Shown here piece after piece: positions 17,000-39,650 of a stretch of DNA of 64,000 nucleotides. The notes beneath the pieces were generated by a model. The model was not told where the DNA came from, did not search any database, and worked only from the letters and a program-made list of their open reading frames with translations. Both the position numbers and the translations under genes were made by a program. Source of the DNA: an uncultured delta proteobacterium (GTDB lineage: Bacteria; Desulfobacterota; Syntrophobacteria; Syntrophobacterales; Syntrophobacteraceae); NCBI GenBank assembly GCA_963808625.1, contig CAWEHK010000031.1:18169-82168 (forward strand), written 5' to 3'. Position 1 is the first letter of the stretch. Every line of letters begins with the position of its first letter.

Positions 17000-17773
17000 T
17001 CAGTGGTCTGTTGTCACTATCCCCATCGGAACCACGTGGATTCCGGAGTTCTCAAGGGTCTTGCGAATGGTCTTGACCAGTTGGCTTGCGCCCGGGTTGT
17101 CGCCGTGGACGCAGAGCGTATCCATTTCGAGAGCGATTTCTTGGCCGTCGATGCTGGTCATTTGTCCCGTCTTCACCAGCTTGAGGACGCGTTCTTTCAC
17201 CGTTTCCGGATCATGAATCACGGCGCCCGCCATCGAGCGCGGGGCCAACTGGCCATTGCTCAGGTAGGCCCGGTCCGGGAAAACTTCCCGCGCAACCCGT
17301 AAGCCCGCATGGGTGGCCATTTGCGCACAGAGGGAGCCGGCCAGAGCAACCAGGATCAGCTCGGGATCGAAGGCTTTGACCGCCGCGATGACTTCCCCGG
17401 CCGCCCGCTCGTCCCGGCCGCCAGGTTATACATGGCCCCGTGCGGTTTAACATGCTGGAGCTTGACACCCGCCGCCCGCGCGAAGGCATCGAGGGCTCCG
17501 ATCTGATAGAGAATGTAGTTCCTGATTTCTCCGGGAAAGGTTTCCAGATTGCGTCGCCCGTATCCGAGAAGGTCCGGATAGCCCGGGTGCGCACCCACGC
17601 CAACGCCGTGCTTTCTTGGCCAGCTCCAGGGTTCGCGCCATGATCATCGGGTCGCCCGCATGCCAGCCGCAGGCCACGTTGGCCGAGGTGATAAAGGGCA
17701 TGATCTCTTCGTCCTGGCCGATCCGGTACAAGCCAAAGCTTTCGCCCATGTCACAGTTGATGTCCGTCCTCAT
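17000..17773 (-). CDS. pxpA: 5-oxoprolinase subunit A (LamB/YcsF), frameshifted
   Basis: [58 protein letters not shown]. Confidence 0.92.
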
Positions 17774-19730: not shown

Positions 19731-19782
19731 TTCGTGCTCTTCGTGCTCTTCGTGCTCTTCGTGCTCTTCGTGCTCTTCGTGG
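19731..19782 (+). repeat. 9-bp tandem repeat (TTCGTGCTC)x5 within a CCACGAA..TTCGTGG palindromic element
   Basis: Five exact units plus TTCGTGG; an unexpanded relative lies at ~50769-50810. Confidence 0.85.
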
Positions 19783-19936
19783 TTAGAAAGGCGGACGAAA
19801 TAAGAGCAAAATAAGGAAGGCGCTCAACCGACCATCATGACCCAAGCCAGGGGCCGGTGGCAAACTTGCTCGCAGAGACGAACCGGCGGAGCGGGCGGGG
19901 AGGCCCCAGGGCTTGAGCCTCCAGGCCTTCAATGAT

Positions 19937-20957
19937 CTAACTCATGCGCGCAGGTACCTGCCCAGTCTGATTGATGGCCGAGAGCTTCCATTGGGACGCA
20001 CCGAGGTCCCGGCAGAAGGTCCAGAATTCCTGGAACTTCACGGGATTCAATTTATCTCCCTCGACAACCTGGCCGGTCTTTTCATCCAGCGTGTAGTCGA
20101 GGAGGTTCGCCGTGAACAGTACCGTGATATATTCCTTCCCGGTTTCCTGCCACATTTCGGAGGGTTCGACTTTCCGAATGGCAATGTTCTCGAGACGATT
20201 GATTATGCCCTTGCTCTTCATCGCCTCGAATTCGGTTCTGAAAAATGCGGCCATCTCGCTCGTAACGATCGCTTCGATCCCTTCCACGCTACGATTCATC
20301 CAGGCCGCCTGCACTTTGAAGAAGAGATCCTGGAAGGTCTCTTTGAGGGCCTCTTCGCTGAAGCCGGGGTCGGCCTGCCGCATCTGCCGAAAGCCCTGTG
20401 CAACTTCCGAAACAGCGGGATAGCTGTCTTGCTGGGAGTCGCGGTATAAGGCAGACGGTCCGGAAGAGCTCCCCTCATCCTGATAACGGGCCTGGCTGTA
20501 GCTTCCGGAGGCAGCGGCCTGCTGGGCCCGCCGCCTTCTTGAAAAACCGGTAGGCAAAGTAGAGCAGCAGCCCGATGAGGGCGAAATCGAGAAGCCCCAT
20601 GCCTCCTCCCGTCATTCCACCGGGCGATGCGTGGCCGGTGCCGCCAAAGAGAAGACTCCCGAGCAGCCCGCCAGCGAGCCCTCCCGCCAGTCCCTGCATT
20701 AAGGGACTGCCGCTGAAGAACCCACCTGACGGCTGGCCGGGAGTCCCGAGGGACGGGTTTCTCCCCGGTGTGCTAAGGCCGGGGGAACCCGTGGACGGAC
20801 TCGACGGCGCGCTCGGAGCCGAAAAACTGCGGCCTCCGCGGCTTCCCGACGAACCTCCGCCACCCGCTCTCGCCCAGGCGCTCGATTCCACAAATGTTGA
20901 AACGGCAAAAAAGAACAGGGCCAGGACTGCCAGCCCGGCAATCAATTTTTTTCTCAT
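19937..20957 (-). CDS. Tim44-domain membrane protein (signal peptide, Gly/Ser-rich linker, TM segments, Tim44 domain); frameshift near 20540
   Basis: AWARAGGGGSSGSRGGRSFS, GLAGGLAGGLLGSLLFG, FFKVQAAW, ITVLFTANLLDY, FQEFWTF, WKLSAINQ. Confidence 0.85.
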
Positions 20958-21017
20958 GTTAAATGCTCCTCCTTATCGAGTGGAACCTCGCCAAACAACC
21001 CCTTCCGCGGTGCTTGA

Positions 21018-21302
21018 CTAGTCGAAGTCGAAAACCTCCTGAAGGAATGATTTTCGTTTGTGCTTCTGATGCCCAGAATGCCTCGGGTCGTATTCCCGGG
21101 GGTGCGCGGGGGGAGCCTGACGGGGATGGGGCTCACGGTATTCGCCTCCGTAACTCTGAGGAGGAGGGGCAGCGGATCTCTCAATCATCTTATCAAGCTC
21201 GCCCCGGTCGAGCCAGACGCCTCTGCACTTGGGGCAATAGTCAATCTCTATTCCCTGTCTGTCTGCGATCATCAGGTCAACACTACATAATGGACATTTC
21301 AT
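21018..21302 (-). CDS. zf-TFIIB zinc-ribbon domain protein
   Basis: MKCPLC..RQGIEIDYCPKCRGVWLDRGELDK..KRKSFLQEVFDFD. Confidence 0.9.
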   Translation of the reverse strand: MKCPLCSVDLMIADRQGIEIDYCPKCRGVWLDRGELDKMIERSAAPPPQSYGGEYREPHPRQAPPAHPREYDPRHSGHQKHKRKSFLQEVFDFD

Positions 21303-21394
21303 TGTTCTTCCTCTCCATGTTGGTTGTTTAACAGGCATCCTCTCACGCCCCGACCGGTGGTTGCCATTGGAACCATGCGTTTTACCGGAGTCAT
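21299..21394 (-). CDS. Candidate 31-aa small protein, first ORF after the riboswitch
   Basis: SD AGGAAAGGAG; MTPVKRMVPMATTGRGVRGCLLNNQHGEEEQ; its TGA overlaps the zf-TFIIB ATG (ATGA). Confidence 0.45.
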   Translation of the reverse strand: MTPVKRMVPMATTGRGVRGCLLNNQHGEEEQ

Positions 21395-21455
21395 GGTCTC
21401 CTTTCCTGGAACCGTTGTGATCCCACGCAACGCCCTTGCCGCCTCGCTCCTCGGC

Positions 21456-21502
21456 AAAAAAAAACGAGACCTTCGGCGTGTTTTACCACCCCAAAAGTCT
21501 CG
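21456..21502 (-). terminator. Intrinsic terminator, expression platform of the riboswitch
   Basis: Minus strand CGAGACTTTTGG..CCGAAGGTCTCG followed by T9; the 5' arm is the aptamer 3' strand. Confidence 0.8.
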
Positions 21503-21588
21503 CTAATTGGCATAACCCAACGGCAAAGCCAGGTGTGTTTGCATGGCACCGTATTGGTGACTTTGCCCTAAGTAGCTACTCCCTCTTG
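21491..21588 (-). ncRNA. yybP-ykoY (Mn2+-sensing) riboswitch aptamer
   Basis: Minus strand CAAGAGGGAGTAGCTA..GGCAAAGTCACCAATACGGTG..CACCTGGCTTTGCC..TAGCGAGACTTTTG has the GGGAGUAGC / AGCGAGAC hallmarks. Confidence 0.85.
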
Positions 21589-21659
21589 TTGGGATGAATT
21601 GTAACCACGTTCCCGCTGATGTCAACCGTGAACGGAAATGCCTCCCGCGCCCGTCCCGA

Positions 21660-39100: not shown

Positions 39101-39286
39101 GCCTTTCCTCCTTTGTCACTCCCTCATACCATCGCACGACATTCTGCGTCATCACAAGTTCTTTCCTGTAACAATTGATTTCCCCAATGGTAACTGCAGT
39201 GATACACATGGCGCGTAAGGTGTATAATCGTGGCCGTGCGCACAAAATCCTGCAAGGCTAACCCTGCAAACAAGGAGAAAAAAGAT
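39089..39286 (+). repeat. 198-bp direct repeat, copy 1 (antiporter start plus divergent promoter region)
   Basis: Matches 43758-43955 with one mismatch seen. Confidence 0.92.
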
Positions 39287-39450
39287 TAACCGCTGAAAGC
39301 ATCTAAGCGGGACCCCCCCAAGATGAGAGTTCCCCTCTGGAGCGATCCAGGCTGAAGGCCCCTTGAAGACCACAAGGTTGATAGGTCGGGTGTGTAAGGG
39401 CAGCAATGTTTTGAGCTAACCGATCCTAATGGGCCGTGCGGCTTGACCAT
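39287..39450 (+). rRNA. rrl: 23S rRNA 3'-terminal fragment only (~165 nt)
   Basis: TAACCGCTGAAAGCATCTAAGC..GTTGATAGG..GTGTAAG..GCTTGACCAT; no upstream 23S or 16S. Confidence 0.85.
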
Positions 39451-39530
39451 TCTAAAAAAGGCAATTGGTCGAGATCAGGACGCGGACTACGCAAACAAAG
39501 AGATCCCTATTCGGTAAGAGCAATCGATTT

Positions 39531-39650
39531 GAGGCGGTGGCGTTAGCGAGGAGGCCACACCCGTTCCCATCCCGAACACGGTCGTTAAGCTCCTCAGCGC
39601 CGATGGTACTGCGCGGGCGACTGCGTGGCAGAGTAGGTCGCCGCCGCCTC
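39531..39650 (+). rRNA. rrf: 5S rRNA
   Basis: CACACCCGTTCCCATCCCGAACACGG..GTTAAGC..CGCCGATGGTACT..GAGTAGGTCG; terminal helix GAGGCGGTGGC/GCCGCCGCCTC. Confidence 0.93.

Follow-up and report, generated by a model that had tools for sequence, protein, structure and literature searches.

A probable P2-less yybP-ykoY-class riboswitch ahead of zinc-ribbon and Tim44-like genes in the Syntrophobacteraceae

The window considered here is a 64,000-nucleotide stretch of contig CAWEHK010000031.1 (positions 18,169 to 82,168), from an uncultured delta proteobacterium of the family Syntrophobacteraceae whose genome is referred to below as G000. On its minus strand a promoter, a structured leader RNA and an intrinsic terminator precede a 31-amino acid (aa) open reading frame (ORF), a gene for a CxxC zinc-ribbon protein and a gene for a Tim44-like membrane protein; an earlier note on this DNA had listed the same three downstream genes, and they are as it described them. 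We consider it probable that the leader acts as an ON switch of transcription and belongs to the yybP-ykoY (Mn2+) class of riboswitches, built on a P2-less three-way junction, and that the operon behind it was shaped by the deletion of an exchanger gene.

The leader RNA is real: a near-consensus promoter, a 101-nt aptamer and a terminator are all present, and the closing helix of the aptamer and the terminator have the 5' arm of the latter in common. The sigma-70-type promoter (21598-21625, minus strand) consists of TTGACA at 21625-21620, a 16-nt spacer and TACAAT at 21603-21598, with 11 of 12 matches; it is one of two promoter-like sites in 3 kb, where shuffled sequences have 1.3 on average. 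The closest relatives, L004 and L005, keep the promoter region, their matches spanning the query from position 2-3, and a scan of the intergenic stretches of the window operon returned no second promoter-like site. Terminator-like matches in the operon region are no commoner than in shuffles. The leader itself folds with z = -4.4, none of 200 shuffles being as stable, and a DNA search through 96 genomes of the order detected homologous leaders in 24, at most four per genome, with conservation that spans the predicted transcript start to just past the U run. The terminator, the putative expression platform (21456-21501, minus strand), has a stem from 21501 to 21466 (GAGACUUUUGGGGUGG to CACGCCGAAGGUCUC) and then a G and a run of nine U (21465-21456). 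Three segments form the 5' arm of this stem: GAGA, the 3' side of the L1 element of the aptamer; CUUUUG, which in the aptamer is the 3' strand of P1.1, its closing helix; and a further seven bases. In predicted folds of the full leader the terminator state reaches -54.0 kcal/mol, compared with -38.2 kcal/mol when P1.1 is enforced, and since the former is thus about 16 kcal/mol stabler the default state would be OFF.

The aptamer occupies 21490-21590 on the minus strand, and the order of its parts can be followed from the 5' end. P1.1 (21588-21583 paired with 21497-21492) leads into L1, where GGAGUA at 21582-21577 lies opposite GAGA at 21501-21498, and then into P1.2 (21576-21573 with 21505-21502). 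A junction of 5 nt (21572-21568) is followed by P3.1 (21567-21558 with 21531-21522), by L3, which reads CCAAUAC at 21557-21551 with an invariant A at 21555, and by P3.2 (21550-21547 with 21535-21532); P4 (21521-21517 with 21510-21506) completes the three-way junction. The hallmark sequences of the aptamer are GGGAGUAGC at 21583-21575 and AGCGAGAC at 21504-21497, and the minimum-energy fold of the aptamer alone, at -29.3 kcal/mol, is exactly this three-way-junction structure.

Structure and conservation were tested on an alignment of 31 copies. The structure formed by P1.1, P1.2, P3.1, P3.2 and P4 is 93.5% paired over the 31 copies, and two-sided changes occur in 17 of its 28 pairs, values reached by none of 500 shuffles; the same structure slid by 1-3 columns is only 27-57% paired. 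The six base pairs of P1.1 are 97.8% paired and three of them vary on both sides, as do five of seven pairs in P3.1, four of five in P3.2 and three of six in P4. RNAalifold, unaided, recovers P1.1, P1.2, P3.1 and P3.2; it does not predict P4. The letters of L1 (GGGAGUAG on the 5' side, GAGA(C) on the 3' side) are invariant in 31 of 31 copies, the wider L1 pair of GGGAGUAGC and GCGAGAC is invariant across the aligned copies, and so, in all 31, is the CA of the 7-nt L3 bulge between P3.1 and P3.2. The conserved L3 adenine would correspond to the Mn2+-coordinating A41 of PMC6649816 and to the 'absolutely conserved adenosine' of PMC12153347. The stretch from P1.2 to P3.1 is only 4-5 nt long in every copy; there is therefore no P2 and no four-way junction.

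To what class does such an RNA belong? R1, a covariance model built solely from the 31 aligned copies, was run with strict filters over 122 genomes of the class and 151 of the phylum. In the class it found 41 copies in 27 of the 122 genomes, all of them within the Syntrophobacteraceae (26 of 80 other genomes and G000) and none in 41 genomes of five other families. The window copy scores 91.9 bits (E 2.4e-25), within the range of 45-107 bits spanned by the others. In the phylum sample, R1 matches of 91-103 nt occur in 12 of 150 other genomes. The curated Rfam model of the class, RF00080, has a gathering score of 45 bits; on 11 of these phylum-level loci it places two above that cut-off (54.3 and 48.8 bits) and four more at 25.6-37.6 bits, and the R1 family thus grades into members that Rfam accepts as yybP-ykoY. 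A control in a distant genome points the same way. Run with its filters off on 40 kb of Escherichia coli K-12, R1 has its best match in the mntP leader (27.2 bits, E 2.7e-6), which carries an insert of 14 nt at the place of P2, and its next best in the alx leader (23.3 bits, E 5e-5), which aligns without one, the third-best match having an E-value of 0.74; in both leaders it aligns the L1 columns to the same letters. The feature by which the class works is also found here, a switch helix P1.1 that closes the aptamer and shares its 3' strand with the expression platform, and cargo for divalent-cation export is found for the family of 41 copies, not for the window copy. Since the literature cited describes validated members that lack P2 (alx) or P4 (mgtA), the class does not strictly require a four-way junction. 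The element is a P2-less variant of the known yybP-ykoY class, with an alx-like architecture and with a first L3 base and a platform of its own. The yybP-ykoY-type aptamer proposed in the earlier note is therefore borne out by the covariation, by the R1 ranking of mntP and alx and by the overlap with RF00080 matches.

The arrangement of helix and terminator suggests how the RNA would switch. Without metal, the 3' strand of P1.1 and the GAGA of L1 would pair downstream and form the intrinsic terminator, and transcription would stop at the run of nine U. Mn2+, possibly also Ca2+, bound between L1 and L3 would hold P1.1 closed, and if P1.1 stays closed during transcription no terminator would form and RNA polymerase would read into the operon. 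The overlap on which this scheme depends is a property of the family: in 38 of the 41 copies the terminator overlaps P1.1 and is followed by at least six U, and of the three copies without a scored overlap two show a hairpin and a U run by eye. The suggestion that the 3' strand of the aptamer doubles as the 5' arm of a terminator, in an antitermination (ON) design, has thus fared well.

Pfam scans of the same-strand ORFs behind each copy reveal the cargo of the 41 riboswitches. A gene of the Na_Ca_ex (sodium/calcium exchanger) family is the first gene behind 13 of them. TerC follows eight, as the first gene in four, after a small PGPGW/DUF454-like or unassigned ORF in three and after a zinc ribbon in one. 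Tim44-like genes likewise follow eight: five as the first gene, one after TerC, one after an Na_Ca_ex-zinc ribbon pair and one in the window. The zinc ribbon (Zn_ribbon_TFIIB) occurs behind six, before TerC in one, before an Mrp antiporter in two, after Na_Ca_ex in two and in the window. GDT1 and P-type ATPases account for three copies each, the Mrp antiporter for two and an M48 peptidase for one; the first ORF has no Pfam family in five, and a histidine kinase stands behind one, the weakest match. The regulon hence combines cargo typical of the class with two further families, and both the Tim44-like and the zinc-ribbon protein are regular members of it in the Syntrophobacteraceae. The link to alkaline stress that the earlier note had inferred finds no support in these results.

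Some individual loci deserve mention in their own right. In two genomes (L074 in G023, L076 in G022) the riboswitch is followed by a zinc ribbon, by a small membrane protein and by a cation/proton antiporter of the multisubunit Mrp type (MrpA, MnhB, MrpC), a transporter not listed as cargo of the class in the literature searched. In two others a pair of riboswitch copies lies 1.4-1.9 kb apart on one strand: in L088 (G049:C80) the first copy precedes PGPGW-TerC and the next an M48 peptidase, and in L084 (G057:C247) the first precedes a DUF454-like ORF and TerC and the next an unassigned protein of 122 aa. In two genomes (L078:401-733 and L084:1800-2168) the first gene downstream of a riboswitch copy encodes a 110-122-aa protein without a Pfam family, starting MD(R/K)LTDR...KKAASNE(K/Q)LAQLI.

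The window copy has no transporter gene behind it, and comparison with the closest relative leader, 86% identical and located in G026 (locus L083), offers a simple history, a deletion. The L083 operon comprises the riboswitch, an Na_Ca_ex gene of 388 aa, the zinc ribbon, the Tim44-like gene and a type-II P-type ATPase. In a blastn comparison, window 21632-21368 aligns with L083 256-519, covering promoter, riboswitch, terminator and the first exchanger codons, and window 21319-19887 aligns with L083 1872-3326, a block that opens 17 nt ahead of the zinc-ribbon start and runs beyond the Tim44 stop. Between the two blocks the window has a junction of 48 unrelated nt (21320-21367, minus strand), where L083 has about 1.35 kb (520-1871) that form the body of the Na_Ca_ex gene. 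To judge from these alignments the window operon is a deletion derivative of a riboswitch-exchanger-zinc ribbon-Tim44 operon that is intact in G026: a deletion of about 1.35 kb would have removed the gene of the Na/Ca-exchanger family and left a 31-codon stub, and the riboswitch would lack a transporter because its exchanger gene was deleted. The stub is the 31-aa ORF (21299-21394, minus strand), which is made up of the ribosome-binding site, start and first nine codons of the exchanger and then of junction sequence, and which matches no Pfam or NCBIfam family; it is not the gene of its own that the earlier note had taken it for. Its TGA overlaps the zinc-ribbon ATG (ATGA), and the translation of the two would probably be coupled by this overlap. 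The same note had called the array a non-transporter operon; that is correct for the window, in which no transporter gene follows, but the state appears to be secondary to a riboswitch-transporter-zinc ribbon-Tim44 operon. A homologue of the deleted exchanger was not found elsewhere in G000 with this query, in an assembly that is 84.6% complete. G000 has three TerC genes, and none of them has a riboswitch of this kind, since R1 found no second copy in the genome.

The zinc-ribbon protein (94 aa; 21018-21302, minus strand) matches PF13453 over profile positions 1-41 of 41 (E 5e-18, 64.7 bits against a cut-off of 22). An N-terminal CPxC...CPxC ribbon is followed by a linker rich in His, Arg and Pro and by a conserved C-terminal tail, KRKSFLQEVFDFD; all six riboswitch-linked copies have an invariant CPxC/CPxC ribbon and an invariant FDFD tail (alignment A5), and in another family of the phylum the operon takes the form riboswitch-TerC-zinc ribbon (L192). 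Relatives are encoded on at least 562 of 598 metagenome stretches, among the matches listed. We examined 80 metagenome loci with full-length relatives, a few of them near-duplicates and 76 with a neighbouring ORF that could be tested. The nearest same-strand gene within 400 nt encodes a transporter in 18 of the 80, namely TerC in nine, a P-type ATPase in six, a cation diffusion facilitator (CDF) in two and Na_Ca_ex in one. On these contexts the zinc ribbon is a widespread companion of divalent-cation exporters. One such metagenome locus (L246:3120-3180) carries the terC RNA motif RF03067 (59.4 bits, cut-off 39.9) upstream of a zinc ribbon-TerC pair. This motif has a fold different from that of the window element and is not present in the window; a second, unrelated cis-acting RNA thus carries the zinc-ribbon family together with TerC.

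The Tim44-like gene (19937-20957, minus strand) is read as two overlapping ORFs, 20957-20475 (160 aa) and 20557-19937 (206 aa). The protein starts with an N-terminal signal-like or transmembrane segment, continues through a Ser/Gly/Pro-rich region, a Gly-rich hydrophobic segment and a transmembrane segment followed by KRRR, and ends in the Tim44 domain; its N-terminal half, with the Ser/Gly/Pro-rich and Gly-rich segments, has no Pfam match. The second ORF matches PF04280 over positions 2-147 of 147 (E 6.8e-41, 140.2 bits against a cut-off of 29.6), so that the C-terminal domain agrees with the Tim44/TimA family (PF04280; NCBIfam NF033779) over the full profile, while the protein falls under the NCBIfam cut-offs (NF033779, 63.8 against 80 bits; NF033778, 19.7 against 200 bits). 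One extra base near 20538, relative to L083 in G026, splits the gene, and intact homologues of 332-377 aa align across both ORFs. The predicted Tim44-domain gene is accordingly there as far as its domain goes, but in the assembly it is not one ORF. The frameshift is probably an assembly error. In the same window pxpA (LamB_YcsF; 17000-17773, minus strand) lies in three frames, covering profile positions 2-62, 57-117 and 151-239, with pxpB and pxpC intact alongside, and a second Tim44-like paralogue of G000, without a riboswitch (G000:C10:14127-15158; L181-L184), is in four pieces in different frames. The split pxpA and the four-piece C10 paralogue suggest that the assembly carries frequent single-base indels, rather than that the window gene is a real pseudogene.

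How far is the Tim44-like family as a whole tied to this RNA? The neighbours in 75 public Tim44-like loci are heterogeneous and include sigma-54 activators, TPR proteins and D-Ala-D-Ala carboxypeptidases among others, as judged by a neighbour caller that takes spurious antisense ORFs in GC-rich DNA and missed an upstream TerC in L110. The idea that Tim44-like genes are generally tied to metal transport is unsupported: among the 75 loci a P-type ATPase and a CDF gene each turn up just once. A tree of 78 rows was built with the 'quick' method from the 75 loci, the C-terminal ORF of the window, L070 and L081, leaving out the partial or weak L145, L173 and L174. All eight riboswitch-linked Tim44-like genes fall into one group of ten rows (SH-aLRT 82, not starred). 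The riboswitch label needs two changes on the tree compared with 7.8 in shuffles, none of 500 being as low, a contrast that is overstated since kin share labels. The two unlinked rows of the group have only 0.8-1.1 kb of upstream sequence, which holds no TerC, exchanger or zinc-ribbon gene. In all five genomes that could be checked there is a second Tim44-like paralogue without a riboswitch, and the linked group occurs in three operon layouts; the pattern points to a dedicated, putatively metal-switched Tim44-like paralogue. Nor do the two extra families form a general pair. The earlier note had asked about zinc-ribbon/Tim44 co-occurrence; a zinc-ribbon gene lies within 4 kb in only one of 78 Tim44-like loci, and the pairing was set aside. 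A complex prediction for the zinc-ribbon protein and the Tim44 domain (score 0.00, mark 0.32) was used neither for nor against binding.

Two further features of the window can be recorded here. The spacer between the Tim44 stop and pxpB contains about five head-to-tail copies of the 9-nt unit CACGAAGAG (about 19735-19785, minus strand). On the plus strand, at 39214-39649, a 5S rRNA gene (100.7 bits) is preceded by a weak match (72 bits) to the last ~260 positions of 23S rRNA, and no full 23S gene was reported in the window.

Several observations weigh against a yybP-ykoY riboswitch that governs these genes. The first is the behaviour of the curated model. The earlier note had named a search with RF00080 as a check, and this gave no significant match at the Rfam cut-off: a scan of the window at the gathering score found nothing, a scan of 601 nt at E <= 10 did not list the element, and on 161 nt alone it reached 13.4 bits (E 0.047) against 45. 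Over the whole genome RF00080 gave two insignificant matches (11.6 and 11 bits), neither of them the element; a full-length match of 11 bits (E 1.6) lies just outside the window start, at G000:C31:17703-17842. At E <= 1 the model lists one of 20 relatives (36 bits) and not the other 19. On E. coli, RF00080 gives the mntP leader 41.6 bits, under the cut-off, and does not list alx at E <= 0.01; as it misses validated E. coli members, failure at its cut-off is weak evidence against membership. The others concern the loop, the sampling and the genes. The first nucleotide of L3 is C in 27 of the 31 copies, U in three and A in one; the published consensus of the family begins with A and alx with U. 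The genomes sampled are almost all metagenome bins, and the kin among them do not count as independent. Among public Tim44-like loci the riboswitch lies within 4 kb upstream in five of 78, the other 73 having no R1 match. No credible R1 match was found in the 80 metagenome zinc-ribbon loci, nor in the 18 transporter-adjacent ones with the R1 filters off, and 13 transporter-adjacent loci gave no RF00080 match at E <= 0.1. In the window itself the switch is no longer followed by a transporter, and the assembly shows the Tim44 reading frame broken. The best share of sampled words among public read runs was 0.17, and the contigs of four metagenome runs, at 90% likeness, leave 20449-20753 uncovered, none of them bridging 21320-21367.

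The cargo raises a question about the ligand as well. An Na_Ca_ex-family gene comes first behind 13 of the 41 copies, and type-II (Cation_ATPase_N) P-type ATPases lie behind the RNA in L095, L083 and four phylum-level loci. Both facts count against an Mn2+ sensor and would suit a calcium-efflux regulon in which Ca2+, or Ca2+ with Mn2+, is bound by the same fold and acts by the same mechanism. The departure of the L3 loop from the family consensus points in that direction too, as does the Streptococcus pneumoniae mgtA aptamer, which binds Ca2+ about 50-fold tighter than Mn2+ (PMC6649816). In cells, however, it is Mn2+ and not Ca2+ that drives read-through and induction, according to the same source. 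TerC (eight of 41) and GDT1 (three of 41), both treated as Mn2+ export families in PMC12153347, are also among the cargo, and the metal-contacting positions of L1 and L3 are conserved. Of the rivals a calcium switch survives best, and we regard it as unlikely; for the yybP-ykoY-class riboswitch of the window we infer Mn2+, possibly with Ca2+, as the ligand.

It is a more doubtful reading still that the locus is a decaying relic, its transporter lost, its Tim44 gene a true pseudogene and its riboswitch in control of nothing useful. About 1.35 kb including the Na_Ca_ex gene is indeed missing, with no homologue found in the 84.6%-complete G000, the Tim44 gene is frameshifted, and the RNA occurs in only two of eight genomes of the genus. 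Against decay stand the intact aptamer, terminator and promoter, the 91.9 bits of the element, which lie within the range of 45-107, the intact zinc-ribbon ORF with its start overlapped by the stop of the stub, and the likely origin of the frameshift in the assembly, given the split pxpA and the split C10 paralogue; we hold the relic to be quite improbable. Scarcely credible at all is the reading that the leader, though conserved, senses no ligand, and that its attenuator is constitutive or depends on a protein, the likeness to yybP-ykoY being superficial. The missed Rfam cut-off speaks for it, but R1 retrieves both validated E. coli Mn2+ riboswitches, R1 matches coincide with above-cut-off RF00080 matches, the metal-site nucleotides are invariant and the cargo is typical of the class.

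If the window element is a metal-sensing ON riboswitch of the yybP-ykoY class, what do the zinc ribbon and the Tim44-like protein do under its control? Their company suggests that both are most likely membrane accessory factors of divalent-cation export or handling, acting alongside TerC, the exchanger family and P-type ATPases. A more specific proposal, tentative and somewhat improbable as it stands, is that the FDFD-tail zinc ribbon and the riboswitch-linked Tim44-like paralogue are unrecognised accessory subunits of the Mn2+/Ca2+ export and metal-delivery machinery, co-induced by the metal-sensing RNA. The Tim44-like protein would be a membrane-tethered adaptor at the cytoplasmic face, as mitochondrial Tim44 is at the translocon, and the zinc ribbon would attach to either the transporter or this adaptor by means of its conserved C-terminal tail. 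Were this the case, the window would amount to a natural experiment, in which the accessory genes are still under metal control after the loss of the transporter. The Tim44-like paralogue and the zinc-ribbon protein do recur behind this RNA, a link of which the literature searched gave no description; searches that paired yybP-ykoY with Tim44 returned nothing, those that joined Tim44 and riboswitch returned nothing on bacteria, and those on bacterial Tim44-like/TimA proteins nothing usable.

The implications extend beyond one contig. Compact P2-less riboswitches of the Mn2+ type exist outside the Enterobacterales, in 27 Syntrophobacteraceae genomes including G000 and in 12 of 150 others of the phylum, and since the curated Rfam model misses most P2-less copies, annotation pipelines under-call the class. 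Two protein families gain a concrete and testable physiological context, and a conserved small partner protein is a useful lead on the action and partners of TerC.

How does the element compare with riboswitches already described? The class is portrayed as two coaxial legs joined by a four-way junction, with L1 and L3 forming the metal site and P1.1 serving as the switch helix (PMC12153347); an L3 adenine contacts Mn2+, and Ca2+ binding is reported for the S. pneumoniae mgtA aptamer (PMC6649816). Canonical four-way members include E. coli mntP and the Lactococcus lactis yoaB and Xanthomonas oryzae aptamers of known crystal structure (PMC6649816, PMC6754395, PMC12153347). With them the window element shares the L1 and L3 sequences, the two-leg architecture, ON regulation through P1.1 and, at the level of the family, TerC, GDT1/UPF0016 and P-type ATPases as cargo, and with the transcriptional members among them the terminator platform. 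It differs from them in lacking P2, in an L3 that departs from the family consensus ACAUACU (PMC12153347) at five of seven positions, in scoring below the gathering threshold and in a cargo that includes Tim44-like and zinc-ribbon proteins. The S. pneumoniae mgtA riboswitch, which controls a Ca2+/Mn2+ P-type ATPase, is a three-way junction with a terminator platform as well (PMC6649816), but has lost the opposite helix: mgtA has UNAAA instead of P4 and keeps P2, whereas here P4 is kept and P2 is lost.

The nearest architectural counterpart is E. coli alx, likewise without P2 and with P1.2 joined to P3.1 through a few unpaired bases (PMC12153347). Both have GGGGAGUA opposite GAGAC in L1, a 7-nt L3 that follows the pattern xCAxUAC, in which positions 2-3 are CA (UCAUUAC in alx, CCAAUAC in the window) and P1.1 as the switch helix. 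The alx riboswitch is translational, has a long P4 and a pH-tuned response, and its relatives are, according to the same source, confined to the Enterobacterales; the window-type element is terminator-based, has a P4 of 5-6 bp and a C in first place in L3 (27 of 31), and is hosted by the Syntrophobacteraceae and other Thermodesulfobacteriota. Of the marks of the alx-type subclass it therefore shows the P2-less junction, and not the U-first L3, the translational platform or the restriction to the Enterobacterales. The loss of P2 in these bacteria was probably independent of that in alx.

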